From a virus (lineage: Duplodnaviria; Heunggongvirae; Uroviricota; Caudoviricetes): a DNA stretch of 64,000 nt. The notes under the pieces are model-generated. The model was not told the DNA's origin. It did not search any database and saw only the letters and a program-made list of their open reading frames with translations. Of this stretch, positions 17,608 to 42,900 are shown piece by piece. Each line of letters begins with the position of its first letter. The first letter of the stretch is position 1. The stretch lies in the IMG/VR virus record IMGVR_UViG_3300026478_000263; one strand, 5' to 3'. The position numbers were made by a program, and so were the translations under genes.

Positions 17608-18140
17608 GAGCAAAAGAATTTATAAAAGAAGCAGAAGCAAGTGACGCCGATTTAAAAGCAAGATATGGTGACTTCGATCCTGAAGATAAAATAATGCTTC
17701 CAACTACAAAATTAAGCAGAGAACCTGCAGCCACGCTTTGGACAGCATATGATGTAGTTAGAAATATTCTAGGTAGAGATAGAGTAACTGACGATGATGA
17801 CGAATTAGGTCCTGGAATGTATTATGTCTACCAGAGTAGCGGAGATCCAATGTTTAGGGATACAGGCGACGGCGTTGGCAGTATCAACTTACCAAATCTA
17901 GACAGCACCGCGGCACGAGACGTTGCTGTTGCGGCCCACGAAGCATATCACGCTTATGTACACGCTAAAAGTAAAGGCGGCTTTGCACACGCTAATGAAA
18001 AGATTATTAACAACTTAGCAGAAAAATGGTTGCGTAAACATTTATCAGGACAAGCCTTACATACAGCATTAGAACAAATTATAGGCAGTAGAATTAGTTA
18101 CGGCCGCAACCACTTACCAAAGCCAGGATTTAAAAAATGA
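17604..18140 (+). CDS. putative injected zinc metalloprotease with T4-like capsid-targeting N-terminus
   Basis: starts MRAKEFIKEAE (internal Met of track ORF 17460..18140); contains HEAYH (HExxH) motif. Confidence 0.5.
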   Translation: MRAKEFIKEAEASDADLKARYGDFDPEDKIMLPTTKLSREPAATLWTAYDVVRNILGRDRVTDDDDELGPGMYYVYQSSGDPMFRDTGDGVGSINLPNLDSTAARDVAVAAHEAYHAYVHAKSKGGFAHANEKIINNLAEKWLRKHLSGQALHTALEQIIGSRISYGRNHLPKPGFKK

Positions 18141-20188
18141 AAATACAATTCAAAAAAATACTAGTAAGTCCATGGACTGCTTTACTAACTCTAGCACTAG
18201 TTGTTGGTGTCAGAGTTGCAGATCCTACATTTGTTGAAAGCGTAAGACTACGTTATTTTGACACATTAATTACAAGTAAAGAAGTTACAGTTAACAACAT
18301 AGTTACTGTAAATATCGACGAAGCCACGTTAGACAAATATGGTCAGTGGCCCTTACCAAGAGCAGAATATGCTAAACTTGTGAAGGAACTATACCAAAGA
18401 AATGCAGGACTTGTTGTACTTAATGTTCTTATGCCAGAGACAGATCGTACTGGTGGAGATGGTGCGCTAGGACAAACTCTAAAAGAGTTCCCTGTAGTAC
18501 TAGGAAGTGCGCCAGCACAGAAAACAAAGAATACACCACGTGTTCCAGGATCGGCTGTACTAGGTCCAGAACATCTAGATCAAATTATTCAATACCCGGG
18601 ACTAATCGCCAACGTTCCTCAACTAGAACAAAATGCCGCAGGTGTTGGCATTACAGGAACACTTCCAGAAGTAGATGGTGTTAATCGCCGCATGCCGTTA
18701 ATTGTTACTGTAGACGGCAAATTATATCCAGCATTGAGTTTAGAGACACTTAGAGTCGCCGCAGGAGACTCTACCTTCCAAGTAAAACTTTTTGAAGGCG
18801 GCGTTGAGAAAATGCGTATTCCAAAGTTTGGTCCTATTGCTACAGATAGTTTAGGAAGAATTTGGATCGATTGGAGCCAAGAAGCTCATAGCGTTAGTGC
18901 TGTTAAACTTCCAAAAGATTTAGGTGGCGCCGTCGTTATTGTAGGTCCTACTGCCGCTGGTATTAGTAATCCGTTACCGACAAGCAAAGGTGCTGTATTT
19001 CCTCACGAAGTGCAGGCCGCAGTAATTGGTACAATGGTTAACGGCATTGTTATTCAACGTCCCGACTATGCCGACGGGGTTGAAATTTTAGCATTAGTAT
19101 CACTTGGCATATTATTAATTTTCTTATCGAGGTGGACTTATGTTGGCATTGGTGCTACTGTGGTTATTGTTGGTGCCATCGTTCCTGGTACTATCTACGC
19201 TTTCAATAATTGGCTCGTCTTGGGAGACGCGACTGCGATCGCGTTTGGCCTTATTATCGTTGCTCTTCATTGTTATGGCGTTAAGTTTATAAGCGAGTTT
19301 TTACAGAAACAGGCAATTAAGAAACAGTTCGCTGGATACTGTAGTAAGGAAGTAGTAGAAATGCTACAAAAAGATCCAGACCTAATCAAGCGTGGTGTGC
19401 GTAAAGACGTATCCGTTATGTTCAGTGACTTGCGTGGCTTTACACCCATTGGAGAACACTACGGTGATGATGTTGCTGGATTAGGCAAGTATATGAACGG
19501 TTACATGGATGCTATTAGTCAGCCTATCATGGACAACAAGGGTATGGTCATAAAGTATGTAGGTGACGCAAGTATGCACATACACGGTGCTCCGATTGAA
19601 GATCCTAATCATGCCCGTACTATTGTTGCTGTTGGTTTACAGATGTTAGATGCTGTTGATGAGTATACTAAACTAATGGAAGCACAAGGCTTACCACCAG
19701 CCGCAATGGGTTGGGGTTGTAACTCAGGTATTGGCTTTATTGGTGAGATGGGATCAACTGACAGACATAGTTACGACATCTTAGGTGACATGGTTTCAAC
19801 CGCCGCTCGTTTAGAAGCACGTTGTAAGGCCTATGGCGTGTTATGTATCATCGGTGCTGAAACTTACAACCGTACTAAAGATGACTTCTTCTATCTAATG
19901 CTAGATAACTTACAACCTAAAGGCAAAACTGTAGCAGACTTAATCTATACAGCATTAAGAACCAAAGGTGAAGATTACAGTAAAGATAAAGTACAGCACG
20001 AGTTGATGCATGCCTTGTATAAACAAAAGAAGTTCGACGAAGCAGCCGCTATGTGTAAAAAACTAAAAGGCAACTTTGGTGGACAAATGGACAAGTACTA
20101 CAAAATCTGGATTGAACGTTGCGAGTTTATGAAAGAACAGAACCTTCCAGATAATTGGAATGGTGAATTCATAGCACATGAAAAATAA
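18137..20188 (+). CDS. CHASE2 sensor domain / class III adenylate(guanylate) cyclase
   Basis: N-terminal TM plus periplasmic CHASE2-like domain and several TM helices; C-terminal cyclase motifs VSVMFSDLRGFT ... KYVGDASM. Confidence 0.8.
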   Translation: MKIQFKKILVSPWTALLTLALVVGVRVADPTFVESVRLRYFDTLITSKEVTVNNIVTVNIDEATLDKYGQWPLPRAEYAKLVKELYQRNAGLVVLNVLMPETDRTGGDGALGQTLKEFPVVLGSAPAQKTKNTPRVPGSAVLGPEHLDQIIQYPGLIANVPQLEQNAAGVGITGTLPEVDGVNRRMPLIVTVDGKLYPALSLETLRVAAGDSTFQVKLFEGGVEKMRIPKFGPIATDSLGRIWIDWSQEAHSVSAVKLPKDLGGAVVIVGPTAAGISNPLPTSKGAVFPHEVQAAVIGTMVNGIVIQRPDYADGVEILALVSLGILLIFLSRWTYVGIGATVVIVGAIVPGTIYAFNNWLVLGDATAIAFGLIIVALHCYGVKFISEFLQKQAIKKQFAGYCSKEVVEMLQKDPDLIKRGVRKDVSVMFSDLRGFTPIGEHYGDDVAGLGKYMNGYMDAISQPIMDNKGMVIKYVGDASMHIHGAPIEDPNHARTIVAVGLQMLDAVDEYTKLMEAQGLPPAAMGWGCNSGIGFIGEMGSTDRHSYDILGDMVSTAARLEARCKAYGVLCIIGAETYNRTKDDFFYLMLDNLQPKGKTVADLIYTALRTKGEDYSKDKVQHELMHALYKQKKFDEAAAMCKKLKGNFGGQMDKYYKIWIERCEFMKEQNLPDNWNGEFIAHEK

Positions 20189-22900: not shown

Positions 22901-23188
22901 ATGTCACAAGCACACGTTCAGAAGTTCGAAGCATCTATGTTTGAGTATTGCTCGGACCATGCCGAAAGGGCATACAAGTTATTTGAAGATGGAGAAGTAG
23001 ATGTTGGATTGGAAAGATTAGGCCATTTAGCAGATATACTCCAAATGTTAAAAAGTTCTAAAAGTTCAAACGGAACTATTAACATTAATACATTTGCACA
23101 AGAAGTAAAAGCATTAGATGAAATAGATAAAGATGCCGTATACACACACTTCCAAGAGAACGGCTTTGGACAATATATACCGGAGTGA
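22901..23188 (+). CDS. hypothetical protein
   Basis: ORF downstream of strong promoter; ATGA overlap with clpP. Confidence 0.4.
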   Translation: MSQAHVQKFEASMFEYCSDHAERAYKLFEDGEVDVGLERLGHLADILQMLKSSKSSNGTININTFAQEVKALDEIDKDAVYTHFQENGFGQYIPE

Positions 23189-23748
23189 AAATGAAAAAAA
23201 TTGATGAGTTCAATGCGGAAGATAGAATTGATCTTAGATTACTGGAAAATTCTACTTTTTATTTGAATGGAGAGATAGATGAAGATACAGTAGGCGAAGC
23301 CATCAAATGGATTCTCTATGAAAATTTACAAGGCGAAGGTAGAACTTTGACCTTGTATATTAACAGCACGGGCGGAGATTTGTATCAGGCTCTAGCGTTA
23401 ATTGATGTAATGCGTAGCAGTCCACATATTGTAAGAACTATTGGAATTGGTGCTGTCATGAGTGCGGCATTTTTAATTTTTGCCTGCGGTGATAAAAAGC
23501 ATCGTTATGCGGCTAGTAATACTAGTTTTATGTGTCACCAATTTACATCCGGAATGGATGCTAAGTATCACGACCTAAAAGCAGAAATGAAAGAAACCGA
23601 ATTGTTAAATGAAAAGATGATAACAATTCTAACCGAAACAACAGGCTTGGTTAAAAGTAGAGTTAAAGCAAAACTACTACCAGCCAGCGATGTTTACCTA
23701 ACTGCACAAGAAGTGGTTGACTTTGGGGTAGCGGATCATATAGTATAG
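23185..23748 (+). CDS. clpP: ClpP-family serine protease subunit
   Basis: 187 aa; GIGAVMSAAFLIFACGDKKHRYAASNTSFMCHQ matches ClpP catalytic Ser/His region. Confidence 0.8.
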   Translation: MKMKKIDEFNAEDRIDLRLLENSTFYLNGEIDEDTVGEAIKWILYENLQGEGRTLTLYINSTGGDLYQALALIDVMRSSPHIVRTIGIGAVMSAAFLIFACGDKKHRYAASNTSFMCHQFTSGMDAKYHDLKAEMKETELLNEKMITILTETTGLVKSRVKAKLLPASDVYLTAQEVVDFGVADHIV

Positions 23749-25972: not shown

Positions 25973-26551
25973 ATGCAGTACAATGAATTTTTAGATTGGG
26001 TAGATATTGACAAGTTTTCAGATGCTTGTAATAACATCTGTCATCAGACAGTATTAAATGAATCCACAAATCGAATGATGAAAGAAAAATTCATTATTGC
26101 GGCAATGCAATTATCTAATCATAAAAAGAACATCGAGTGGACTGACGTTCGCGATTACGATATAAAATTTACCGATTGGACCAATGGCGACGTAGAAGTT
26201 AAAACTGGCAACGAACCTTTGTTCTACGCAAAGTCAGGAACTCCTAAAAAGACAATCAGTCTTAAATTAAAAAATGTTTACGAAAGTAAGAATCAAAGAA
26301 CTACACTAGACAAAGTTTTTAATCATTTAATGATAGTCCAAATTAAAGGAACATTCGCTGTTGCCTTTGTAGATTACGCAACAGTTAAGGCTAATCTAAA
26401 ACAATTAACAGACGGCTTCTTAGTCAAACTAACACACGACCAAATAAATATTGTGTACAAAAAAGATATGAGAAATGAACCGACATCTTGGACAATTGAC
26501 TTAGATCCAAAACCTTGGATATTTGGCACATTAGCAAAGGCAGGCGTTTAA
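25973..26551 (+). CDS. hypothetical protein
   Basis: 192 aa intact ORF. Confidence 0.4.
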   Translation: MQYNEFLDWVDIDKFSDACNNICHQTVLNESTNRMMKEKFIIAAMQLSNHKKNIEWTDVRDYDIKFTDWTNGDVEVKTGNEPLFYAKSGTPKKTISLKLKNVYESKNQRTTLDKVFNHLMIVQIKGTFAVAFVDYATVKANLKQLTDGFLVKLTHDQINIVYKKDMRNEPTSWTIDLDPKPWIFGTLAKAGV

Positions 26552-26885
26552 AGAATTGTTGTAATCCCTTCAAAGCGAAGGACTTCTGGACGCGGGTTCG
26601 ACTCCCGCCAGGTCCACCATAAGGACATAAATTTACTTTGGTATTCATTGTAAATTTACTTTGGTATTGTGTTTTTATGATGGGCCTGCCATGGTTTCGA
26701 CAGGGGTAGATAGTAGAGACGGCAACACGGTAGGCGATGACCGTAAATCAAGCAAAACTAGTAAATGCAAACGCATCTACATTTGAGTACTTCACTGTTG
26801 AAGGCTTCACAGCCGACAATGGTCTAGTAGCAGCCTAAGAAACTGCAACTCCGGGGTAGGACTTACCTTGTAACCCAAACAACCA
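26552..26885 (+). ncRNA. ssrA: circularly permuted (two-piece) tmRNA
   Basis: acceptor piece 26552-26619 ends GGACGCGGGTTCGACTCCCGCCAGGTCCACCA (T-arm + CCA); coding piece starts GGGCCUG at 26682, which pairs with CAGGUCC giving a G3-U70 wobble; tag frame ends ...GLVAA then TAA at 26836. Confidence 0.6.
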
Positions 26886-26910
26886 AAGGGCCTTCGGGCC
26901 CTTTTTTATT
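26886..26910 (+). terminator. rho-independent terminator
   Basis: GGGCCTTCGGGCCC hairpin + TTTTTTATTTT; identical hairpin reused at 35323. Confidence 0.75.
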
Positions 26911-26922
26911 TTACCAAACACA

Positions 26923-26951
26923 TTGACAGATGCCCTGTCCGAGCCTATAAT
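26923..26951 (+). promoter_or_regulatory. sigma70 promoter TTGACA-17-TATAAT
   Basis: perfect consensus hexamers. Confidence 0.6.
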
Positions 26952-26987: not shown

Positions 26988-28067
26988 ATGACCTATTTCC
27001 TAAAGCAAGGTAGCACTTACCGAGTATCCAAAAAAGAAGCACTTGATATTCAAGAGAAGTTGCCGGCTGGTAACTATGTCGTTAAAAAGGACGAGATGTC
27101 TGGGCAGTTGTTTCTTGAAACAATTGACAAGTTCGAAATCAAAGGCAAGATTTACGGCGATACAAACAAACGTGCCGACCGTATTCTTTATGCGTTTGAG
27201 GATCGTCCCAGTACTACTGGCGTAATGCTTACTGGTGAAAAAGGTTCTGGCAAAACACTATTGGCTAAGATGCTTTCTGTCAAGGGATATGACAAAGGTA
27301 TTCCTACTATTGTAATCAATGCTCCTTGGTGTGGAGACCAATTCAATGCGTTCATTCAAAGTATTGAACAACCTGTAATTGTAGTGTTTGATGAATTTGA
27401 AAAAGTCTATGATGAACACGAGCAAGAACAGATGCTGACTCTGCTGGACGGTGTGTACCCAACCAAAAAGTTGTTTGTGCTTACTTGTAACGACAAATGG
27501 CGTGTTAATAGCCATATGCGTAATCGTCCTGGTCGTGTTTATTACAGCCTTGAGTATAAGGGCTTGGATGCAGACTTCATTCGTGAATACTGCATGGACA
27601 ATCTTCAAAACAAAGAACACATTGAAAAGATTGTAGGTATTGCTGGTACGTTTGACCAATTCAACTTTGACATGCTGAAGGCATTGGTTGAAGAAATGAA
27701 TCGTTTCGACGAAACTCCGCAGGAAGCAATGACTATGCTGAATGCCAAACCAGAATACGGTTCGACTTCTCGTTATGCAATCAAGTTGGTTATCAATGGC
27801 GAAGAAGTCAAAGAAAACAATTTTGAAGACAAGGAATGGGAAGGCAATCCTCTTAACAAGAATGTCAACATTTCTTACAAGGTTATTGAACGTGACGAAG
27901 AAACTGGTGACGAAGATTGGGATTGGCAGGGTATCCGATTCACTCCGGACGAGTTGAAGAAGATTGATGACAATGGTACCAAGTACGTGTTCACTAACAA
28001 GGAAGGTGCAAGCCTTATCCTTACCAAAGTTAAAGAGAAGACTTACTCTTACTGGGACGCTTTTTAA
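26988..28067 (+). CDS. AAA+ ATPase (ClpX/HslU-like Walker A)
   Basis: Walker A GEKGSGKTLLAKML, Walker B VIVVFDEFEK; 359 aa. Confidence 0.7.
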   Translation: MTYFLKQGSTYRVSKKEALDIQEKLPAGNYVVKKDEMSGQLFLETIDKFEIKGKIYGDTNKRADRILYAFEDRPSTTGVMLTGEKGSGKTLLAKMLSVKGYDKGIPTIVINAPWCGDQFNAFIQSIEQPVIVVFDEFEKVYDEHEQEQMLTLLDGVYPTKKLFVLTCNDKWRVNSHMRNRPGRVYYSLEYKGLDADFIREYCMDNLQNKEHIEKIVGIAGTFDQFNFDMLKALVEEMNRFDETPQEAMTMLNAKPEYGSTSRYAIKLVINGEEVKENNFEDKEWEGNPLNKNVNISYKVIERDEETGDEDWDWQGIRFTPDELKKIDDNGTKYVFTNKEGASLILTKVKEKTYSYWDAF

Positions 28068-28074
28068 GCGCAAG

Positions 28075-28105
28075 GGTGTTGTAGAAATACAACACCTTTT
28101 TTACG
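28075..28105 (+). terminator. rho-independent terminator
   Basis: GGTGTTGTAGAAATACAACACC hairpin + TTTTTTAC. Confidence 0.65.
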
Positions 28106-28106
28106 A

Positions 28107-28135
28107 TTGACATTTCTTACTAGATCGCTTATACT
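28107..28135 (+). promoter_or_regulatory. sigma70 promoter TTGACA-17-TATACT
   Basis: consensus hexamers upstream of 28163 gene. Confidence 0.5.
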
Positions 28136-28162
28136 AAAAGCCTAGTAAGAAAGGAGCCCAAA

Positions 28163-28354
28163 ATGTCCGAAGTTAGAGTTAGCACCCTGTACAAAGTCAC
28201 CGTAACTGAGTACGAAGCAGGATGGGGACAGCGTCCTTGCCCAGAAGAAACCAAATTCTTCACTACCCGCGAAGAGGCCGAAACCTACGCAGAAGCCTGT
28301 AATCAAGGCACTTATGAGATCTATTGGAGAGCCCGCATAGATCAAATTGGTTAA
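28163..28354 (+). CDS. hypothetical small protein
   Basis: AAGGAG RBS; 63 aa. Confidence 0.35.
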   Translation: MSEVRVSTLYKVTVTEYEAGWGQRPCPEETKFFTTREEAETYAEACNQGTYEIYWRARIDQIG

Positions 28355-28393
28355 TCTTGTGTCGATGGGTTCATATTTTGGACTCATCGACAG

Positions 28394-28422
28394 TTGACAG
28401 ACCACAGTTCATTTGCTATAAT
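28394..28422 (+). promoter_or_regulatory. sigma70 promoter TTGACA-17-TATAAT
   Basis: consensus; lies inside the first 23 codons of track ORF 28394, so the real start is 28463. Confidence 0.55.
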
Positions 28423-28462
28423 ATACACATACAGTAAACAACTAGGCGCAGAAAGGCTAAAG

Positions 28463-30625
28463 ATGATTATTAACAATGCTCCGCAAAACGAAGCAATTTT
28501 GAGTAATGTAAGTGAAGTGGGCGAGTTCCGTATTCGCAACTCTGCTAAGGCATTTAACATTTTGAGTTCAGGCTTGTATGCTAACAAGATCCGTGCTATC
28601 ATCCGTGAACTGAGTTGTAACGCAGTAGATAGCCATACTGCCGCAGGCAAACAAGATACTCCTTTTGATGTACACTTGCCCAACCAATTGGAACCTTGGT
28701 TTAGTATTCGTGACTATGGTACTGGTTTGAGCCACGAACAAGTTACAAACATCTATACCACATACTTTGAAAGTACTAAGACCAACAGCAACGATTTTAT
28801 CGGCGCATTAGGTTTGGGTTCTAAGAGTCCTTTTAGTTATACAGATAACTTCACGGTAACCGCAATCAAAGACGGCGTTAAAGGTGTTTACTCTGCTTTT
28901 ATTAACGAAGCAGGTGTGCCTAGTATTGCCAAGATGGGTGAAGAACAAACCAGCGAACCCGACGGTGTCGAAGTTAAATTCTCAGTCAGTGACCGTTGGG
29001 ACTTTAGTAAGTTCCAAGAAGAAGCACGATATGTCTACACTTATTTTGCTCTGCGCCCAGTTATCAGCGGTGTCAGCGACTTCCGTTTCCGTGATGTAGA
29101 ATATGATGCTAAGGATATCATTCCAGGCGTTCACTCATACACAGACGGACACCGTCGTGCTGTAGCCATCATGGGCAATATTGCCTATCCTATAGATGTT
29201 CCTAACACAGAACAGGCTATGGGCGAATTGCGCCTGTTGTTGAACTGTGGTTTGGAAATGCACTTTGCTATTGGCGAATTAGACTTCCAAGCAAGCCGTG
29301 AAGGTTTGTCATACATTCCTCAGACTGTAGATGCCATCAAGCGCAAGTTAGAGGCAGTAAATGCTCAGTTGGCTGTTCACGTAGCCAAAGAAGCAGATGC
29401 TATTCCTAACCTGTGGGATCGTGCTATCTTCTTGACTAAGAAGTATCATAATGGTTTGTGGCAAGCGGCGGTTAAGAAGTATGTAGCAGACACTAACCTG
29501 TCTACATTCGATGACAGCCGTTACGGCGGTACTAAGACTTTCAAAATGGGTGTTGAAGATCTTGCTAAGAAATACAACATCGTTATCAGAGGTTTTAACT
29601 ATGCCAAGCACACTAAGGCATATCCTAACCGTAAGGCTGACACACAATACAGTGATAACAAGAACGCTCAAGGGCATTACGATATGTTTGCCTACTGGGG
29701 CATTACTGTAGAGGACCGTGTACAGTTTATCGTTAATGATACCAATATCGGTGCCCTTGAACGTGCCAAGTTCCACTATCGTGAAACTAAGCCAGACAAT
29801 AGTGCTACAGTCTTTGTCTTAGATAAATTAAACAAAGACAAAGTCATGAACACTAAGGCGTTCTTTAAGGCTATTGCTAATCCTCCAGAGGATCGTATTG
29901 TAAAAGCCAGTTCGTTGTCGAAGAAAGAACGTCAAGTTGGTTTGGCAAAGAACGTTACAATCTTGTGTTTGCAAGAACGTGGCACAGGTGGCTACTATCG
30001 TGAACGCGAAATGGTTTGGCGTGATGCTGGTAAGGCTGACAGTTTTGATGATGCTACTACTTACTACTACTTGCCTTTGAGCGGTTTTGAAGTTCAAAGT
30101 AAGTATGGTATGAGCAACGTCAAAGAGTTTTACAACGATTTGAAAGACTGTGGTTTAACTGGTTTGAAGACTACAATCTACGGTGTGCGTAAAGGCGACA
30201 TTGAGTTTATTAAGACTCAAAAGAATTGGGTCAACATTGAAGAGCACATTGTTAGTGTTTTGAGCAAGCCAATTGATAATAAACTTGTTATGAGTTTGGT
30301 ATTGCAGGCTGTTGACAATTTCAACCTGTTGCAGTATAATGAAAGCATCATGTTTAATGTTACTAACAAAAATAGTCCGTATGTTGAATTGGTAAAACAG
30401 TTCAAGGGCTATGAAAAGATTAAGTACAGTGAACAAAGTTTGAAGCGTTTGTGCAATCGTTATGCTCCTGGTGTAACCTTTAGTCCAGAAGCTCAAGTGC
30501 AGAAGTTTACTGATGAATGTGCAACCATTAGTAAGCGTTATCCGTTGTTGGCATACTTGCGTAGTGCGCCAAATCATGAAGTTGCTGAGTACGTTAATTT
30601 GATTGACACACAGAAAGGTGTTTAA
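28463..30625 (+). CDS. Hsp90/HtpG-like GHKL ATPase
   Basis: N-terminal motifs GLYANKIRAIIRELSCNAVDS, DYGTGLS and FIGALGLGSKS align with Hsp90 ATP-binding boxes ([36 protein letters not shown]); 720 aa. Confidence 0.6.
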   Translation: MIINNAPQNEAILSNVSEVGEFRIRNSAKAFNILSSGLYANKIRAIIRELSCNAVDSHTAAGKQDTPFDVHLPNQLEPWFSIRDYGTGLSHEQVTNIYTTYFESTKTNSNDFIGALGLGSKSPFSYTDNFTVTAIKDGVKGVYSAFINEAGVPSIAKMGEEQTSEPDGVEVKFSVSDRWDFSKFQEEARYVYTYFALRPVISGVSDFRFRDVEYDAKDIIPGVHSYTDGHRRAVAIMGNIAYPIDVPNTEQAMGELRLLLNCGLEMHFAIGELDFQASREGLSYIPQTVDAIKRKLEAVNAQLAVHVAKEADAIPNLWDRAIFLTKKYHNGLWQAAVKKYVADTNLSTFDDSRYGGTKTFKMGVEDLAKKYNIVIRGFNYAKHTKAYPNRKADTQYSDNKNAQGHYDMFAYWGITVEDRVQFIVNDTNIGALERAKFHYRETKPDNSATVFVLDKLNKDKVMNTKAFFKAIANPPEDRIVKASSLSKKERQVGLAKNVTILCLQERGTGGYYREREMVWRDAGKADSFDDATTYYYLPLSGFEVQSKYGMSNVKEFYNDLKDCGLTGLKTTIYGVRKGDIEFIKTQKNWVNIEEHIVSVLSKPIDNKLVMSLVLQAVDNFNLLQYNESIMFNVTNKNSPYVELVKQFKGYEKIKYSEQSLKRLCNRYAPGVTFSPEAQVQKFTDECATISKRYPLLAYLRSAPNHEVAEYVNLIDTQKGV

Positions 30626-30626
30626 A

Positions 30627-31424
30627 ATGTTTCCATATTTGATTCAAGGCAAAAATATTGTTGTTGTAATTAACAACAATCCACATACAATTACTTCTAC
30701 TCATATTGCCTATGAGAAAGTCAAAGAAGCAATTAAGACAGGTGACTGGGACACAGTACAGGAAGTAATTGAGCCAAAGAAAATTGTGCTCGAATATGGT
30801 GCTGGTAACATCGCTATCCAAGGAGACAAGTTCTACTGGAAGGGACAAGAGTTCCACAACACATTGGCAGATAGAATTATTTCTATGTACCAAGATGGTT
30901 TCCCAATTGAGCCTATGGTTCAGTTTATGGAGAACTTGATGAGCAACCCAAGTCATCGTGCTGTTACAGAACTGTACAAGTTTTTGGAAAAGGGTAATTT
31001 GCCAATTACCAATGACGGTCACTTCTTGGCATACAAGAAAGTTCGTAAGGACTATAAGGATTGCCACAGTGGTACAATGGATAACTCTGTTGGACAGATT
31101 GTTGAAATGGAGCGCAACCAAGTTGACGACAAGGCCGAAAACACTTGTAGTTCTGGTCTGCACTTCTGCTCACGTGAGTACTTGGACCACTTTGGTGGTG
31201 AACGTACAGTGATCCTTAAGATCAATCCACGTGATGTTGTAAGCATTCCTACTGACTACAATGCGTCTAAGGGTCGTGCTTGCCGCTACGAAGTTATTGG
31301 TGAATTGGGCGTACATCCAGACGATGCTTTCAAAGCACCTGTCCAGGATGAAGCCTACACACAAGAGCAGTTGGATGCCGCTGTTAAGGCCGCAGTCGAT
31401 GCCGCTCTTAAGGTAACACAATGA
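30627..31424 (+). CDS. hypothetical protein
   Basis: AAAGG RBS before ATG at 30627 (internal Met of track ORF 30603). Confidence 0.45.
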   Translation: MFPYLIQGKNIVVVINNNPHTITSTHIAYEKVKEAIKTGDWDTVQEVIEPKKIVLEYGAGNIAIQGDKFYWKGQEFHNTLADRIISMYQDGFPIEPMVQFMENLMSNPSHRAVTELYKFLEKGNLPITNDGHFLAYKKVRKDYKDCHSGTMDNSVGQIVEMERNQVDDKAENTCSSGLHFCSREYLDHFGGERTVILKINPRDVVSIPTDYNASKGRACRYEVIGELGVHPDDAFKAPVQDEAYTQEQLDAAVKAAVDAALKVTQ

Positions 31425-31597
31425 TTAGACTTTGGCTAGTCTTTGCAATCCTTGCCGTCCTGATCCATTTAGGTATTACTACCTGGAGGAAAATGGAGGG
31501 CAAGGAGCGTTGGTCATTGACAAAGTCATTGGCCTATAGTATAATTGTTTCACTGTTAGCACTAATGGTGATGACAGCAATCGTAATTTTATTTTAA
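31421..31597 (+). CDS. small membrane protein (58 aa), not in ORF track
   Basis: MIRLWLVFAILAVLIHLG... two TM helices; ATGA overlap. Confidence 0.3.
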   Translation: MIRLWLVFAILAVLIHLGITTWRKMEGKERWSLTKSLAYSIIVSLLALMVMTAIVILF

Positions 31598-31606
31598 GGA
31601 AAAACA

Positions 31607-32407
31607 ATGAAGCGTATTTTAACTCTCTCTATTCTTGCCGCCGCAGTTTTGGCAACGGGTTGTACTCGTATCGAAACTGGTGAAGTTGGTCTCCGTGTCG
31701 GTTTTGACAAGCAGGTCAAGAATGAGGAATTGCTTCCTGGTTCGTTTAACCAAACTATTATCGGCGATGTACTTACATTCCCAACTAAGGAAATTAGTGT
31801 CAAAGTTGAAGACATGACTCCATTGGCTAAAGATAATAGCACAATGAAGGACTTTGATGCGTTGGTTACTTATAATATCAATCAAGCACAAGTGGCCGAG
31901 ATTTATAATACAAAAAATAAATCATTCCACGCTAGTCATAATGGCGATGTTTACTTGATGTATAATTACATCTTTAATGCTTCACGTAATGCTATCTACA
32001 AAGCCGCACGTAAGTATGAAGCATTGGAAATGGGTGATGCACGTCAAGCAATGGAAACTGAAATCAAAGAACAAGTTACTCGTACACTGGCTGAAGAAAA
32101 GTTGGATGGTACTATTGTAATTGGACAAGTTCTTATTCGTAACATTGTGCCTGCAGACTCTGTTGTAGCCAGCGCCAACGAATTGGTCAAAGCCAAGAAC
32201 GAGTACAAGACCGAAGAAGTCAAAGTTGCTACTGCTAAGAAACGTAACGAATCGATGCAGGCCAATCCGATGGCAATTCCATTGTTGAAGGCGGAGGCAG
32301 AAGCAGAAGCCATGCGTAAGTTGCCCGATGCTATTGCCAACTTCAAAGGTCAAACTTTGGTTATCAACGGTGTTGTAACTCCTACTGTTACTACCAACGG
32401 TAAGTAA
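31607..32407 (+). CDS. SPFH/band-7 (HflK/C-, prohibitin-like) lipoprotein
   Basis: lipobox LATGC; SPFH-like core IETGEVGLRVGFDKQV... with coiled-coil and Ala/Glu-rich tail. Confidence 0.7.
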   Translation: MKRILTLSILAAAVLATGCTRIETGEVGLRVGFDKQVKNEELLPGSFNQTIIGDVLTFPTKEISVKVEDMTPLAKDNSTMKDFDALVTYNINQAQVAEIYNTKNKSFHASHNGDVYLMYNYIFNASRNAIYKAARKYEALEMGDARQAMETEIKEQVTRTLAEEKLDGTIVIGQVLIRNIVPADSVVASANELVKAKNEYKTEEVKVATAKKRNESMQANPMAIPLLKAEAEAEAMRKLPDAIANFKGQTLVINGVVTPTVTTNGK

Positions 32408-32619: not shown

Positions 32620-32693
32620 GCGCTTGAAGCTCAATGGATAGGCAGGGACTTCTAAACTCCCGATAGCAGGTTCGATTCCTGTCTAGCGCACCA
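32620..32693 (+). tRNA. tRNA-like gene with anticodon CTA (amber-suppressor type), slightly non-canonical
   Basis: acceptor GCGCTTG/CTAGCGC (one U-U), D-arm, anticodon stem GGGAC/CTCCC with loop TTCTAAA (CUA), T-arm GCAGG-TTCGATT-CCTGT, discriminator A, encoded CCA. Confidence 0.45.
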
Positions 32694-37815: not shown

Positions 37816-37890
37816 TGTATCCCTAGTGTTAATGGCAGCACGACAGTCTCCAAAACTGCTAGTCGGGGTTCGAGTCCCTGGGGGTACGCC
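37816..37890 (+). tRNA. tRNA-Trp (CCA)
   Basis: acceptor GTATCCC/GGGGTAC, anticodon loop CTCCAAA, T-loop TTCGAGT, CCA encoded. Confidence 0.75.
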
Positions 37891-37895
37891 AATAA

Positions 37896-37973
37896 TGCAA
37901 CGGTGGCAGAGAGGCCCAATGCAACGGATTGCAAATCCGTAAAACCGTCAGTTCAAATCTGACCCGTTGCTCC
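37896..37973 (+). tRNA. tRNA-Cys (GCA)
   Basis: acceptor GCAACGG/CCGTTGC, anticodon arm ACGGA-TTGCAAA-TCCGT, T-arm GTCAG-TTCAAAT-CTGAC. Confidence 0.8.
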
Positions 37974-37981
37974 AGGTTATA

Positions 37982-38071
37982 TCCCCCGTTAGCTCATGGA
38001 GAGCAGGTCGGCTTATAACCGATTAATCTAGATAAGGTCCAGGATGAGGTTCGATTCCTCAACGGGGGACC
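37982..38071 (+). tRNA. class II-like tRNA (90 nt, long variable arm), anticodon loop CTTATAA (formal anticodon TAT) - isotype unresolved
   Basis: acceptor CCCCCGT/ACGGGGG + A + CCA, T-arm TGAGG-TTCGATT-CCTCA, 21-nt variable region. Confidence 0.5.
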
Positions 38072-38243
38072 ATAAGGAGAATATTATGGCAGTACTTGTA
38101 GTGTTAGTTATAATGTTCGTGTTGTATCAAGTTTTGAAAAAATATTAAAAGGAGAGTAGCATGAAACGTGCTAAACGTTAGTGTCACTCTAGATCTCCCG
38201 TATGGTCTAGGGTTGGCACGTAAAATCAAATCAATACGTACAA

Positions 38244-38319
38244 CCCTGTTTAGCGTCAATGGTAGCGCACTTGACTCTTAATCAATGAGGTGTGAGTTCG
38301 AATCTCACAGCAGGGACCA
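38244..38319 (+). tRNA. tRNA-Lys (CTT)
   Basis: anticodon loop CTCTTAA, T-arm GTGAG-TTCGAAT-CTCAC, CCA encoded. Confidence 0.7.
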
Positions 38320-38322
38320 TAT

Positions 38323-38397
38323 GGGGGTATAACTTAATGGTTAAAGTAGCGGGCTTTTAACCCGTAAATCAGAGTTCGATTCTCTGTGCCCCTACCA
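38323..38397 (+). tRNA. tRNA-Lys (TTT)
   Basis: anticodon arm GCGGG-CTTTTAA-CCCGT, T-arm CAGAG-TTCGATT-CTCTG. Confidence 0.8.
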
Positions 38398-38579
38398 TAT
38401 GAAAGCATTCTTAACTGGTCGCATAGCGTCAGTAGTAAGGACGGGCCACCATCTTATGACGAAAAAGGCATAAGAGTGCTTCCATATGGTAGTGTATAAA
38501 AACAAACTAACCACAGCCAGGAACTATAGACTCTGGGTGCATAGCGCATTGTCGTTAGTTTCTTTTTGTATAGTATTAT

Positions 38580-38653
38580 TCCTGGATAGTTAAATGGTAT
38601 AACAATCGGCTGATAACCGGTCATTCTGAGTTCAATTCTCGGTCCAGGAACCA
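38580..38653 (+). tRNA. tRNA-Ile (GAT)
   Basis: perfect acceptor TCCTGGA/TCCAGGA, anticodon loop CTGATAA. Confidence 0.75.
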
Positions 38654-38659
38654 ATTTAC

Positions 38660-38734
38660 ATAGCGTTCGACTTCTGGGGAGGTCATCACCCTTTCAAGGT
38701 GACTAGGCGGGTTCGATCCCCGTACGCTATACCA
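38660..38734 (+). tRNA. tRNA-Glu (TTC)
   Basis: perfect acceptor ATAGCGT/ACGCTAT, anticodon arm TCACC-CTTTCAA-GGTGA. Confidence 0.75.
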
Positions 38735-38819
38735 GAGCAAATAGAGATCTTGTGGGTTCATCCATGTTCTCTCAATGTTTGTTAGTTTCAATGGGTGGTA
38801 TAGAAACTAACACCAATTT

Positions 38820-38894
38820 GGGGGCAGTAGTGGGCTACGGTCTTCCCTTGCAAGGAAGATGTCTAGAAGGATTCGATTTCCTCGGCCTCCACCA
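38820..38894 (+). tRNA. tRNA-Ala (TGC)-like with truncated D-arm
   Basis: acceptor GGGGGCA/GGCCTCC with G3-U70, anticodon arm CTTCC-CTTGCAA-GGAAG; D region only 15 nt, variable 8 nt. Confidence 0.45.
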
Positions 38895-38983
38895 AATTTG
38901 CGACAATGGTGGGTTAACCGGCCTTGCCGGGGCATTCTAGATTACCGCGAAGGTTCGAGTCCTTCGGTCGCAATTATTTTTAT

Positions 38984-39061
38984 CTCTGCGTAATGTCAAT
39001 CTGGTAGACGGCCTGATCTGGAGTCAGGAGGCTGTACGTTCGAATCGTACCGTGGAGACCA
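38984..39061 (+). tRNA. tRNA-Pro (TGG)-like (C33 in anticodon loop)
   Basis: anticodon arm CCTGA-TCTGGAG-TCAGG, T-arm GTACG-TTCGAAT-CGTAC, CCA encoded. Confidence 0.5.
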
Positions 39062-39066
39062 ATTTT

Positions 39067-39141
39067 GCCCTTGTATCCTTAGTGGTAGAGGTCCTGTTTT
39101 GTAAGCAGGGTGTGGTGGTTCGATTCCATCCTGGGGCACCA
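39067..39141 (+). tRNA. tRNA-Thr (TGT), second copy
   Basis: anticodon arm CCTGT-TTTGTAA-GCAGG, T-arm GGTGG-TTCGATT-CCATC. Confidence 0.6.
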
Positions 39142-39367
39142 AGTTTTGTAAGTGTCAGCAAGAGAATGTCACGCTATTGTAGGTAAGTTCGAACTACCTT
39201 AATAGTAAAAGGGGACGGGTTCAACTCCCGGGGGATCGGAAGATCCCTGCAGATTGGTTGCTAACTGGACTAGTATCCCAAGTGACGTACCGAGTCCCAG
39301 CCGGCTTTATATACATGGGTGAATGGTTGCTATAACGATGGGGCAACTACTTACAAATTCAATCTGT

Positions 39368-39441
39368 TGGCCTATGGTGTAATGGTAACACAACTGACTT
39401 TGACTCAGTCGTTCCAGGTTCGAGTCCTGGTAGGCCTGCCA
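39368..39441 (+). tRNA. tRNA-Gln (TTG)
   Basis: anticodon arm ACTGA-CTTTGAC-TCAGT, discriminator G, weak 1-72 pair as in bacterial tRNA-Gln. Confidence 0.7.
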
Positions 39442-39448
39442 ATTTTAA

Positions 39449-39525
39449 CGGTCCTTAACTCAATGGATTAGAGTGCCAGTCTTCGAAACTGGAGGTTGGG
39501 AGTTCGAGTCTCTCAGGGCCGGCCA
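39449..39525 (+). tRNA. tRNA-Arg (TCG)
   Basis: anticodon arm CCAGT-CTTCGAA-ACTGG, D-stem ACTC/GAGT. Confidence 0.75.
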
Positions 39526-39527
39526 AT

Positions 39528-39602
39528 GGTGTTGCTAGTGTAGTGGTCCGCACGGCTGTCTGTGAAACAGTAAGGCAGGGTTCGATTCCCGGCTTCACCC
39601 CA
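39528..39602 (+). tRNA. tRNA-His (GTG) with G-1
   Basis: anticodon arm GCTGT-CTGTGAA-ACAGT, extra 5' G pairing with C73, two U-U mismatches in acceptor stem. Confidence 0.6.
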
Positions 39603-39608
39603 AATATC

Positions 39609-39684
39609 GCCGCTTTAGCAAATGTGGTCATTGCACCGGTTTGAAGCACCGAGGAACTTGGTTCGATCCCAAGGGGCGGCACCA
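39609..39684 (+). tRNA. tRNA-Phe (GAA)
   Basis: anticodon loop TTGAAGC, T-arm CTTGG-TTCGATC-CCAAG. Confidence 0.75.
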
Positions 39685-39691
39685 TAATTAT

Positions 39692-39768
39692 GCCCTTGTA
39701 CGCTAATTGGTAATGCGAATGGATTTAAAATCCGTTGTGTGTAGGTTCGAATCCAACCAAGGGTACCA
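39692..39768 (+). tRNA. type-I (short variable arm) tRNA with anticodon TAA (Leu codon UUA) - atypical
   Basis: anticodon arm ATGGA-TTTAAAA-TCCGT, 5-nt variable loop, discriminator A, CCA encoded. Confidence 0.55.
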
Positions 39769-39769
39769 T

Positions 39770-39841
39770 GCCTCTGCTGATGGAGCAGTGCCAGGTCTTC
39801 TAAACCAGGTTATAGTAGTTCGAATCTACTCAGAGGCGCCA
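39770..39841 (+). tRNA. tRNA-Arg (TCT)-like, short D-arm
   Basis: perfect acceptor GCCTCTG/CAGAGGC, anticodon loop CTTCTAA, T-arm AGTAG-TTCGAAT-CTACT; 72 nt. Confidence 0.5.
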
Positions 39842-39843
39842 AG

Positions 39844-39917
39844 GCTCTTGTAGGTAAATGGTATACCAGTGTCTTGGTACGACACAATCGAAAGTTCGAT
39901 TCTTTCCTTGAGCACCA
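39844..39917 (+). tRNA. tRNA-Thr (GGT)
   Basis: anticodon arm GTGTC-TTGGTAC-GACAC; two U-U mismatches in acceptor. Confidence 0.65.
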
Positions 39918-39922
39918 GATAT

Positions 39923-40000
39923 ACCCCTGTGGACAAATTGGTAAAGTCGTCTCTCTCAAAAGGAGAAGTTCTCTCCGTTCGAATCGGAGCAGGGGTACCA
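39923..40000 (+). tRNA. type-I tRNA with anticodon CAA (Leu codon UUG) - atypical
   Basis: perfect acceptor ACCCCTG/CAGGGGT, anticodon arm TCTCT-CTCAAAA-GGAGA, 6-nt variable loop, discriminator A. Confidence 0.55.
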
Positions 40001-40046
40001 CATTTGTAGCAGATTCTATCTACAACGAATTATACAAGTAAAACAA

Positions 40047-40136
40047 CGAAGCGTGGCAGAGTCCGGTTTATTGCACCTGTCTTGAAAACAGACGATCCGA
40101 AAGGGTCCGTGAGTTCGAATCTCACCGCTTCGGCCA
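40047..40136 (+). tRNA. tRNA-Ser (TGA)
   Basis: class II, perfect acceptor CGAAGCG/CGCTTCG, anticodon loop CTTGAAA, long variable arm GATCC-GAAA-GGGTC. Confidence 0.8.
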
Positions 40137-40143
40137 AAAGGTG

Positions 40144-40172
40144 TTGACTTGTTTAACAGTTGATCGTATAAT
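40144..40172 (+). promoter_or_regulatory. sigma70 promoter TTGACT-17-TATAAT inside tRNA array
   Basis: consensus hexamers 9 nt upstream of tRNA-Ser(GCT). Confidence 0.55.
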
Positions 40173-40180
40173 ACAAATAT

Positions 40181-40275
40181 AGTGAGTTGGCCGAGCTGGT
40201 CGAAGGCACCTTCCTGCTAAGAAGGCATTCCTGCAAAAACGGGGATCAAGGGTTCGAATCCCTTACTCACTGCCA
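40181..40275 (+). tRNA. tRNA-Ser (GCT)
   Basis: class II, perfect acceptor AGTGAGT/ACTCACT, anticodon arm CCTTC-CTGCTAA-GAAGG. Confidence 0.8.
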
Positions 40276-40282
40276 AAATGTC

Positions 40283-40311
40283 TTGACTAGTTTCTAAAGT
40301 TCATATACAAT
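40283..40311 (+). promoter_or_regulatory. sigma70 promoter TTGACT-17-TACAAT inside tRNA array
   Basis: consensus hexamers upstream of tRNA-Tyr. Confidence 0.5.
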
Positions 40312-40362
40312 AGAGACTAGTTAAGAAATTAACCTAGTTCTTTAAAAATTTCAAGCAGATAT

Positions 40363-40448
40363 GGATGTGTAGGAAAATTGGTAACCCCAGTGGACTGTAA
40401 ATCCGCCGCCTTACGGCACTGCTGGTTCGACTCCAGCCGCATCCACCA
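40363..40448 (+). tRNA. tRNA-Tyr (GTA)
   Basis: class II, anticodon arm GTGGA-CTGTAAA-TCCGC, T-arm GCTGG-TTCGACT-CCAGC. Confidence 0.75.
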
Positions 40449-41093
40449 TTAAGAAATAGCATTGACGGGTATCGTCTATGGACGCATAGACTTATGAAGG
40501 ATAAGGCCATCTTACCCTTCTGAGAAAACCGTGAACAATGGCTTATGAGGAGAATCGAACTCCACTCAGAAATACGTTTCATCCCATAGGGTGTAATGTT
40601 ATTTTTTAATGGTAAAAATTTAAGGGTAGTTTATTATCCTGTTGGCGGTTCGCCGTTGACGAAGAATAAGTTGAGTGATCAACCCAAAGGAGGTAAGCCT
40701 ACGCAACTCCGCCAGTAATGGTTCATGTAAACAAGCCTGCTCACTACCGCGAGGTAGCGTTCACTGAGAAGACCGGTGGATGTAACAATGAAGCAAGTGT
40801 TAGGGAAAGAATGTGTATCGACTGGCCCGCAAGGGAACCAGGGTGCATGAAAAGTAACGGGTGGTGCTGACTTCCTAACAAAACCAACTTGCGAATTGGT
40901 ATGAGAAAGGGTAGTGTATTTGTCCAAGGGGTCGCTCCTAAGGGCTTGTATGCAATATTAATGGTTAGTGGACTGTTTTGATGCAGGACATTGATCGTGA
41001 AATATCACTGAGTAGTCCGCGAGACAAAAGGTATGTGGTGAGTTGTATTCAGTAATCCAAAAGGTTATTGAGCAACAGAGGCAGCTCATCGCG

Positions 41094-41169
41094 GTAGGTT
41101 TGATATAGCGTAATGGTAACGCAATTGCCTCTTAAGCAATGGACTGTTGGTTCGATCCCAACTATCGAT
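41094..41169 (+). tRNA. tRNA-Lys(CTT)-like, defective acceptor stem, no CCA (possible pseudo-tRNA)
   Basis: D-arm GCG-TAATGGTAA-CGC, anticodon arm ATTGC-CTCTTAA-GCAAT, T-arm GTTGG-TTCGATC-CCAAC; 5' acceptor pairs poorly. Confidence 0.3.
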
Positions 41170-41588
41170 TATAAAATGCAAAGACTGCCTCGGTCATATG
41201 TGAAAAGCATCTAATACTCGAGCCGCAAGGTAATCGAGTCAGACGTAGCTCGCAAGGTGAAATCTGTTTATGCTGGAAGTTTCGTAAGTGGTTAGCGCCG
41301 CTGAATGGCTCGCAAGGTCAACGGAGTAGATAGCGTAGAATAGCATATGGCGACAAGACTACTGCCTGTCTTTAAAAACGGCGATGCTGATAGTGGACAT
41401 AGGTACAGTAATGGCTTATGTGGATGTCTAGAGAAGGTTGGCTCGCAAGGCTGACTATAATGCTAGAGGCACTATTGGCTAACGTATAATCTCAGCGTTA
41501 GCACTATTCTAAAACACATTAGCTCGAACCGAATAACGGCATTATAAATGCTTCTGGTAGTTGGTTAGTGTGTTTCAGAATAGAATTT

Positions 41589-41665
41589 GCACCGTTAGCT
41601 CAGTTGGTCAGAGCGCCGGCCTGTCACGTCGGAGGCCAGGGGTTCAAGTCCCCTACGGTGCGCCA
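41589..41665 (+). tRNA. tRNA-Asp (GTC)
   Basis: perfect acceptor, anticodon loop CTGTCAC identical to the E. coli tRNA-Asp loop. Confidence 0.85.
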
Positions 41666-41679
41666 AGATAACTATTAAT

Positions 41680-42483
41680 ATGAAAACACTTTTAATTTTA
41701 GGAGATTGCCAAAGTAATGGCAATAATTGTTTGGCTGGTGACATAGTCAACGACGATGCTCCGAGGACTTGGAGTCTACGTTTCCATAATGATTTTAGAA
41801 GTGTTTTTAAATGGTATCTAAAACATAGAAAAGAAAACAATGTTACAACACCTATGCCCAATGGCAATATGGAAAATGTTGTTTGGCATTATCTATGGGA
41901 AGAAGAACAAAAAGCCGCATGGCCTAATTTCTTAAATGTTTCCAATGTAGTTAATATATCTATTAACGGTGGACATTTTATAGGTCATCACAAAAGATTA
42001 AAACAGTACCTAGCAGAGAATCCTAAACCGGATCATGTATTAGTTACAGATTACACGTTTAGTCATATAGCACACAGTTTCAAATATAACAATCAACGAT
42101 ATGTATTTGAACGTGAAAATTATGTAGACGGAGAATGGAATCCAGATAGATATCCAATTGAAGTTCATAAAAAGCGATTAAACGGTATTGCTTTTCAAAA
42201 AAGTCAAAGCAAAGATTGGCATATTCGTAGACATAGAAATGGTTACAATATGTTAATTAAGTTTTTAGATTCTCAAAATATTAAATGGACGACTGTTAGG
42301 TTTGGAGATCCTAATCCTGACAACTCAGAAATTTTTAAAGAGTTTATGCACACTGGTATAGATTGTACTGAATACGGAAAACAGTATATGAGTGCTAATG
42401 GTGAGAATGCAAAAATTAAATTGTCTGTGCAAGAAAAAATTGCAACGACAATTCAGGAATACTTAAATAGTATTGTCAGTTAA
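41680..42483 (+). CDS. SGNH/GDSL-like hydrolase (putative) embedded in tRNA array
   Basis: N-terminal LILGDCQSNGNN resembles the GDS(L) block; 267 aa intact ORF. Confidence 0.4.
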   Translation: MKTLLILGDCQSNGNNCLAGDIVNDDAPRTWSLRFHNDFRSVFKWYLKHRKENNVTTPMPNGNMENVVWHYLWEEEQKAAWPNFLNVSNVVNISINGGHFIGHHKRLKQYLAENPKPDHVLVTDYTFSHIAHSFKYNNQRYVFERENYVDGEWNPDRYPIEVHKKRLNGIAFQKSQSKDWHIRRHRNGYNMLIKFLDSQNIKWTTVRFGDPNPDNSEIFKEFMHTGIDCTEYGKQYMSANGENAKIKLSVQEKIATTIQEYLNSIVS

Positions 42484-42484
42484 T

Positions 42485-42568
42485 GCCCTGGTGGTGGAAT
42501 GGTAGACACGCTGGTCTTAGAAGCCAGTGGCGAGAGCCGTGAGAGTTCGAGTCTCTCCTGGGGCACCA
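42485..42568 (+). tRNA. tRNA-Leu (TAG)
   Basis: class II with 13-nt variable arm, anticodon arm CTGGT-CTTAGAA-GCCAG. Confidence 0.8.
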
Positions 42569-42574
42569 AAATAT

Positions 42575-42650
42575 GCGGGTGAAGTGTTTGTGGTTACACG
42601 TCAGTCTTCCAAACTGAAATAGACGAGTTCAACTCTCGCCTCCCGCTCCA
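42575..42650 (+). tRNA. tRNA-Gly (TCC)
   Basis: anticodon arm TCAGT-CTTCCAA-ACTGA; U-U at 6-67. Confidence 0.7.
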
Positions 42651-42655
42651 TCATT

Positions 42656-42732
<77 letters not shown>

Positions 42733-42742
42733 ATGTTAGTTT

Positions 42743-42817
42743 GCCTGGTTAGCTCAGTGGTAGAGCGTCTCGTTTACACCGAGAGGGTCGGCAGTTCGAA
42801 ACTGTCACCAGGTACCA
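42743..42817 (+). tRNA. tRNA-Val (TAC)
   Basis: anticodon arm TCTCG-TTTACAC-CGAGA. Confidence 0.8.
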
Positions 42818-42824
42818 AGTTTAT

Positions 42825-42900
42825 TCCCTAGTAGCTCAGCGGTAGTAGCACCTGACTGTTAATCAGGGTGTCGGTGGTTCGATCCCACCCTGGGGAGCCA
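42825..42900 (+). tRNA. tRNA-Asn (GTT)
   Basis: anticodon arm CCTGA-CTGTTAA-TCAGG. Confidence 0.8.

Follow-up and report, generated by a model that had tools for sequence, protein, structure and literature searches.

A probable T4-type rIIA-rIIB pair beside a classical-clade AAA ATPase in an uncultured freshwater jumbo phage

The window analyzed here is a 64,000-nucleotide (nt) stretch of the IMG/VR virus record IMGVR_UViG_3300026478_000263, and all coordinates given without a locus label refer to it. Its interval 26988-30625 carries two plus-strand genes for ATPases of 359 and 720 amino acids (aa). It is very probable that the larger protein and the product of the next open reading frame (ORF) constitute a T4-type rIIA-rIIB pair and that their neighbor is a classical-clade AAA protein, not a ClpX-like one. 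An earlier note made from the sequence had instead seen an Hsp90-like GHKL protein and a ClpX-like unfoldase, which with the DnaK, Hsp20, and ClpP of the phage would give a chaperone set. Both ORFs are present as it listed them (26988-28067, 359 aa; 28394/28463-30625, 743/720 aa), and the genes that it added to the set are real. However, the locus is an ordinary anti-defense locus of rIIA-rIIB and an AAA gene, not a chaperone set.

The rIIA-rIIB pair and its GHKL domain

The 720-aa protein (28463-30625, plus strand) matches the phrog_612 family, "RIIA lysis inhibitor," with query residues 1-715 aligned to profile positions 1-720 of 725 (E = 2e-138). BLASTP comparison with T4 rIIA gives 36% identity over residues 1-302 (E = 2e-43), and both proteins start with MII. 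Relatives occur in 2925 phage records according to tblastn, and the listed ones are mostly annotated as rIIA. The closest among the matches listed, at 29.5% identity, is from the Xanthomonas jumbo phage XacN1, where an rIIB gene follows as well. A Foldseek search of BFVD with the predicted structure recovers RIIA of KVP40, RB43, 44RR2.8t, and many other phages over ~780 aligned columns (E = 1e-39 to 1e-26), and the RB43 entry is an RIIA-RIIB fusion. No solved structure of any rIIA relative was found by PDB sequence searches with the single sequence or with a profile.

Members of the rIIA family have been described as an N-terminal GHKL domain joined to a variable C-terminal domain (Iyer et al. 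2021, PMC7824862). Here, a GHL-type GHKL ATPase occupies approximately residues 40-285 and is followed by a lineage-specific C-terminal region. The C-terminal 420 residues match the rIIA family through profiles and predicted structure only, and this region is conserved only within that family. The start of the gene at 28463, which had been proposed earlier, agrees with the position of the promoter, with the PHROG and T4 alignments that begin at residue 1, and with 720-aa gene calls on identical contigs.

The adjoining gene was missed by the earlier note, as were a transfer-messenger RNA (tmRNA, ~26466-26929) and a ClpS gene (6202-6510) that are discussed below. It encodes a 265-aa rIIB ortholog (30627-31424, plus strand) with 40% identity to T4 rIIB over a core of 206 aa (BLASTP, E = 8e-59) and a match to phrog_609 (E = 4e-82). 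Identical metagenome contigs carry the same 265-aa call with the Pfam assignment PF26926 (Phage_T4_rIIB). The rIIA stop codon (TAA, 30623-30625) and the rIIB ATG at 30627 leave a single base between them. The pair therefore resembles T4 rII in having the same order and abutting genes, and the products are of similar size (720 versus 725 aa for rIIA and 265 versus 312 aa for rIIB). The GHKL boxes are identical to those of T4, and the sigma-70 type promoters upstream would fit early expression. A PADLOC search gave no meaningful match for the AAA+ protein, rIIA, or rIIB.

The three GHKL boxes that suggested Hsp90 are all present (E49-LSC-N53-AV-D56, D84-Y-G-T-G88, and G114-AL-G-L-G119), are invariant among 38 homologs, and are conserved in T4 rIIA. 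The likeness to Hsp90 holds at the level of the GHKL fold, but it does not extend to function, where the protein is assigned to rIIA and has no PF00183 domain. Searching Pfam for HATPase_c and HSP90, as had been recommended, leaves HATPase_c below threshold and gives no match to HSP90 (PF00183) at E <= 0.1. The NCBIfam HSP90 family model aligns with residues 32-134 only and scores 39.7 bits against a cutoff of 455 (E = 2e-10). When the rIIA model is compared with other GHKL structures, the values are 11.4 for GRP94 (N+M), 11.1 for the Hsp82 N-domain, 11.0 for topoisomerase (topo) VI-B, 10.9 for the phage T6 topo II ATPase, 10.9 for TRAP1, 10.6 for MutL, 8-9 for MORC, 7.9 for full-length HtpG, and at most 6.4 for histidine kinases. 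Because Hsp90, topo VI-B, topo II, and MutL give nearly equal values, the fold can be placed in the Gyrase/Hsp90/MutL branch of GHKL but not in Hsp90 specifically. MORC, MutL, and sensor kinases had been named as the assignments that would speak against Hsp90. A sensor kinase identity is excluded by the histidine kinase values and MORC falls lower, but MutL is close to the Hsp90 values.

The protein also differs from Hsp90, HtpG, and GRP94 outside the ATPase domain. It does not have the Hsp90 middle or C-terminal domains, its C-terminal region is specific to the rIIA family, and rIIB is its obligatory genetic partner. Several rIIA-like entries in BFVD carry the automatic name "HSP90 family protein," so the Hsp90 label given to this gene repeats an existing annotation habit.

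The classical-clade AAA ATPase

The 359-aa protein (26988-28067, plus strand) is a classical-clade AAA ATPase that belongs to a separate family within the clade and is not ClpX/HslU-like. It scores 38.6 bits against Pfam AAA (PF00004; gathering threshold 21.2), and its entire length aligns with phrog_2376, "ATPase" (E = 9e-97). Its best PDB sequence matches are YjoB, VAT, and p97. A profile built from 51 diverse relatives finds p97/Cdc48 D2, NVL, AFG2, VAT, and Rix7 in the PDB at 1e-16 to 1e-9 (4e-16 for p97 D2), and neither ClpX nor HslU is among the 60 best listed profile matches. The AlphaFold2 (AF2) model (pLDDT 77) consists of an N-terminal four-strand beta domain (residues 1-46), an AAA module (59-250), and a C-terminal beta domain (261-347). 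The top 50 Foldseek matches of this model include YjoB, Bcs1, Rpt subunits, PAN, Cdc48, Msp1, Yta7, and FtsH; all of them belong to the classical clade, and ClpX and HslU are absent.

Conserved motifs are in keeping with this placement. Among 51 members at 41-53% identity, G83xxGxGK89, D135-E136, T166/N168, and R180-P-G-R183 are invariant. The aromatic-x-Gly signature of pore loop 1 is also retained, with F, W, Y, or H at position 114 in 46 of the 51 and G116 in 48. The protein thus shares with classical AAA proteins (Cdc48/p97 D2, Rpt/PAN, FtsH, Bcs1, and YjoB) the Walker A and B motifs, the sensor-1 Asn, a second region of homology with RPGR arginine fingers, this pore loop, and a single AAA module with an N-terminal beta domain. 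It differs from them in that its identity to any solved structure is 12-19%, its N-domain is distinct and short, a C-terminal beta domain has been added, and there is no fused protease or membrane anchor. The family is large, with 4135 representatives of 50%-identity clusters in PHROG 2376 at E <= 1e-3. The best 120 metagenomic matches are 70-88% identical to the protein, and an actinobacterial phage has a homolog at 58%.

Within the classical clade, the protein might be a chambered chaperone or translocase for folded proteins of the Bcs1/YjoB type, a role that has been proposed for BCS1 orthologs in jumbo phages, and not a threading unfoldase. YjoB is the best single-sequence match in the PDB, and YjoB (7w42) and several Bcs1 structures are top Foldseek matches. 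Both have a similar architecture in which an N-terminal beta domain precedes a single AAA module, and BCS1-like AAA+ proteins have been reported in jumbo phages (Iyer et al. 2021, PMC7824862). However, the whole-chain Foldseek TM-scores are only ~0.4, and the N-domain here has four strands and ~58 residues versus ~160 in Bcs1 and YjoB. As in threading AAA proteins, the family keeps the aromatic-x-Gly pore loop, and its profile matches p97/Cdc48 D2 best; the 60 best listed profile matches do not include Bcs1. The Walker B motif common to Bcs1 and YjoB is an unusual ED (PMC9565160), whereas DE is invariant in PHROG 2376, which sets this family apart within the classical clade. Membership in the Bcs1/YjoB group was rejected on the Walker B motif and the profile ranking, and we consider an activity of this type unlikely.

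The comparison with ClpX and HslU stands for the Walker A motif (GEKGSGKT) but fails for the clade, where neither protein is found as a structural or profile neighbor. What the protein has in common with them is an AAA+ P-loop, the aromatic-x-Gly pore loop, and a ClpP gene in the same genome. It differs in having the second region of homology of the classical clade and in lacking several ClpX/HslU features, two of which the earlier note had correctly found to be absent. There is no Cys in residues 1-114 and hence no N-terminal C4 zinc-binding domain, and the IGF-type tripeptide [LIVM]G[FL] occurs nowhere in the protein. In addition, the Pfam AAA_2 score is 13.8 bits against a cutoff of 27, and the NCBIfam ClpX model does not match.

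These results bear on the proposal that an Hsp90-type GHKL chaperone and a ClpX-like AAA+ protein that feeds the phage ClpP would act with DnaK and Hsp20 as a proteostasis set. The window does contain genes for DnaK (3768-5633), Hsp20 (5700-6146), ClpS, and ClpP (23185-23748), the GHKL boxes resemble Hsp90 as judged by the NCBIfam match, and the AAA+ protein combines a conserved pore loop with a hydrophobic tail that could dock. Conservation of gene context was examined in 80 IMG/VR loci that carry AAA+ relatives at 56-87% identity, with flanks of up to 6 kb on each side. One of these (L070, 6001-7692) encodes a canonical 196-aa ClpP 18 nt 3' of an AAA+ homolog that ends in HWDAF. This is the sole tight pairing in the 80 loci: a ClpP-like gene is present in the flanks of 3 and was not found in those of the other 77. 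Phages with the AAA+ family infect mostly Escherichia, Enterococcus, Bacillus, and Staphylococcus, whereas genomes with ClpP are mostly from phages of Mycobacterium, Bacillus, Prevotella, and Gordonia, so the host-genus counts of the two families differ strongly, and most phages with the AAA+ family come from host genera in which phage ClpP is rare. In the window itself, 3.2 kb separate the AAA+ gene from ClpP, and this stretch contains several promoters as well as the tmRNA.

A different partner for the phage ClpP is suggested by the ClpS adaptor gene (6202-6510, plus strand; Pfam ClpS, 102.6 bits), which lies between the genes for Hsp20 and heme oxygenase (6507-7061). ClpS is an adaptor of ClpA/ClpC-type unfoldases, so Clp ATPases of the host are the more plausible partners of the phage ClpP. 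Given the scarcity of linked ClpP genes, the mismatch of host genera, and ClpS, the claim that the AAA+ protein is the cognate unfoldase of this ClpP is not supported, and a dedicated partnership between them is unlikely. The proteostasis set as a whole is very improbable, since it must also contend with a 720-aa protein that is rIIA over its full length and adjoins rIIB, with an HSP90 similarity that is absent from Pfam and confined to the N-domain in NCBIfam, and with an AAA+ protein of the classical clade that has no zinc domain, IGF loop, or AAA_2 match.

The C-terminus of the AAA ATPase is a further conserved feature. A tail of the form Y-[Y/W]-D-A-F-COOH (residues 351-359; here YWDAF) is nearly invariant in the lineage, and 72 of 77 homologs end in AF. 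In the wider PHROG 2376 family, the C-terminal residue is hydrophobic in 40 of 51 members, where the background fraction of hydrophobic residues is 0.40. The AF2 model predicts the very end of the chain to be disordered. This hydrophobic and aromatic tail recalls the HbYX tails of proteasomal ATPases, but its pattern is Y-[Y/W]-D-A-F and not Hb-Y-X. As judged from the motifs, the protein would assemble into a ring for threading or remodeling a substrate protein, and its tail would dock onto a partner. If this were true of the whole family, PHROG 2376 might comprise tail-docking phage unfoldases whose partner is a ring peptidase (host or phage ClpP) or another machine. Such docking would be a new mode of coupling, similar to that of HbYX and HslU tails, and in this lineage it might join rIIA/rIIB counter-defense. 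We regard this extended proposal as a long shot.

Locus organization and proposed function

The interval is made up of separate, probably early transcription units and contains no chaperone operon. Upstream of the AAA+ gene, the tmRNA gene has an intrinsic terminator with an 8-bp GC-rich stem followed by a T-run (26885-26904), and the AAA+ gene has its own perfect sigma-70 consensus promoter (26923-26951, 12 of 12 positions). Its unit closes with a terminator hairpin (28072-28099) that has a 12-bp stem followed by U6 and a folding energy of -15.6 kcal/mol (z = -4.96); none of 200 shuffled sequences was equally stable. Next come a near-consensus promoter (28107-28135, 11 of 12) and a 63-aa ORF with a good ribosome-binding site (28163-28354). 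This ORF is supported by a gene call on identical contigs and a weak phrog_11243 match, and BLASTP found no similarity between its product and T4 rIIA.1. The rIIA-rIIB pair is read from a perfect sigma-70 promoter with an extended -10 TG (28394-28422), and a second perfect consensus promoter lies within the 3' end of rIIA, 5' of rIIB (30312-30340). All of these elements are on the plus strand. The sites at 26923 and 28394, both recognized previously, are among 7 perfect TTGACA-N17-TATAAT sequences in the window, every one of which is on the plus strand. Only 0.03 would be expected by chance, and these promoters are thus a genuine feature of the phage genes.

The tmRNA directly 5' of the AAA+ gene is a permuted, two-piece molecule (26466-26929, plus strand), and its 3' end borders the promoter at 26923. 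The ARAGORN call spans 26527-26929 and gives the tag peptide ANASTFEYFTVEGFTADNGLVAA, and the tmRNA scores 138 bits with the Rfam model tmRNA_permuted and 129 bits with beta_tmRNA. A link between the AAA+ gene and tRNA or tmRNA genes was considered and rejected. Either type of gene is found within 600 nt in 12 of the 80 loci and a permuted tmRNA in the flanks of 8, but the related phages are rich in tRNA genes.

On the other side of the pair, the plus-strand region 31421-32407, 3' of rIIB, encodes a 58-aa ORF that resembles a two-helix membrane protein and then an SPFH/Band-7 protein whose N-terminus is of lipoprotein type (lipobox LATGC) and whose gene has a perfect promoter of its own at 31517. 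The order from rIIB to Band_7 is repeated in L005 and L011-L014, although not in L008. These genes on the rIIB side may form a membrane-directed module.

Genes of nicotinamide adenine dinucleotide (NAD) salvage are common neighbors of the AAA+ family. The AAA+ gene is often directly 3' of NAMPT/NadV and NMNAT-Nudix/NadR genes (L018-L097; L005, 5174-7916; L016, 1-4949), and its island also holds genes for a dual-specificity phosphatase, PTH2, and an RNA ligase. De novo clustering places a NAMPT-like gene immediately 5' of the AAA+ gene in 27 of the 80 loci, and the same is seen in the distant Ochrobactrum phage OC. NMNAT-Nudix-like, macro-domain-like, Cys-phosphatase-like, and P-loop kinase-like genes are also recurrent neighbors. 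The names of these neighbors come from sequence motifs and from Pfam calls on matching L005 genes.

The expected role of the pair comes from T4 genetics. The T4 rIIA and rIIB genes are dispensable unless the host has RexAB, which aborts infection by membrane depolarization (doi 10.1101/2025.11.20.689424). RIIB by itself is toxic and is recognized by CARD/gasdermin defense systems (PMC10312443), and the mechanism of rII has been called "poorly understood" (Iyer et al. 2021, PMC7824862). By analogy, early production of rIIA and rIIB would let this phage escape abortive infection of the RexAB type, and RIIB itself might trigger other defenses. All of the ATP-binding residues of rIIA are intact, which suggests a dimer clamp driven by ATP. 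Like the clamps of other GHL ATPases, it would probably close upon binding ATP, and it would act together with RIIB on a membrane-associated target.

Several observations weigh against the account given here. BLAST finds no similarity to T4 rIIA in the C-terminal 420 residues of the protein, and rIIB lacks the ~80 N-terminal residues of T4 rIIB. The function proposed for the pair would be carried over from T-even phages at 36-40% identity, and the host is apparently not an enterobacterium, as judged from the heme oxygenase and bilin reductase genes and from a ClpP whose best match is from a Synechococcus phage. Ring formation, threading, and tail docking by the AAA+ protein are deduced from motifs alone, and its tight pairing with ClpP in L070 may reflect a link to a protease. 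Finally, rIIA is found within 5 kb 3' of the AAA+ gene in 24 of the 61 loci whose downstream sequence extends for 3 kb or more, at AAA+ identities down to ~58%, and this proximity could reflect function and not only ancestry.

If it does, then AAA+, rIIA, and rIIB might be a single counter-defense module in which the AAA+ protein would remodel or extract a membrane target or the rII complex. The order AAA+, zero to three small ORFs, rIIA, and rIIB recurs in L005 and L008-L014, and the surrounding island is rich in genes of counter-defense type (NAMPT, NMNAT-Nudix, macro-domain-like, PTH2, and RNA ligase). However, a terminator and promoters divide the genes into separate transcription units, the intervening small ORFs vary in number, and the synteny may have been inherited within one lineage. 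More distant AAA+ homologs are found beside an anaerobic ribonucleotide reductase (phi92), beside NadV, PnuC, and NadR (Ochrobactrum phage OC), beside MazG (Tunturi_3), and inside a tRNA array (Pumpernickel), and in none of these four phages is the gene beside rIIA. XacN1 has no annotated ATPase gene within 6 kb of rIIA-rIIB, and no T4-type phage is among the 30 listed AAA+ matches, so rII loci exist without an adjacent AAA+ gene. A joint module is accordingly quite doubtful, and we interpret the adjacency of AAA+ and rII as lineage synteny within an island for counter-defense and NAD salvage.

The phage and the significance of its rII locus

The rIIA sequence is found in identical form on 37 contigs of up to 330 kb from freshwater metagenomes, and the phage is an abundant, uncultured freshwater jumbo phage. 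A search of a phage collection for near-identical DNA found nothing, which indicates that it has no close cultured relative. The window also encodes a heme oxygenase and a ferredoxin-dependent bilin reductase (6507-7734, plus strand), which are auxiliary metabolic genes of cyanophage type. Together with the best match of ClpP, which is from Synechococcus phage BUCT-ZZ01, they suggest that the phage infects a cyanobacterium or some other phototroph-associated freshwater host.

Other features of the window are also on the plus strand. An array of ~32 tRNA genes (37817-45473 and 10267-10342) covers most amino acids, and the tRNA region includes a full-length GOLLD RNA (41035-41498; RF02032, 207 bits, E = 4e-57) in which a tRNA-Lys(CTT) is embedded (41098-41171). 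A tRNA with a CTA anticodon (32620-32693), named 'Pyl' by ARAGORN and scoring 38.4 bits as an Rfam tRNA, is a potential amber suppressor. A homolog of the curli-secretion channel CsgG (159 bits) with a C-terminal SH3 domain is followed by a borderline curlin-repeat protein (20.4 bits versus a cutoff of 20.7) and a FecR-domain protein (11712-15055), a set that is unusual for a phage. A 683-aa fusion of CHASE2 with an adenylate/guanylate cyclase (18137-20188) is conserved on related contigs.

The range of the rIIA-rIIB pair now includes an uncultured jumbo phage from fresh water with genes of cyanophage type. A phage protein that is claimed to be an Hsp90 from its ATP-binding boxes is best regarded as rIIA unless proven otherwise. 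The AAA family is the more useful lead from this locus, since it is large and strongly conserved and has the motifs of a threading motor together with a conserved tail that implies a partner.

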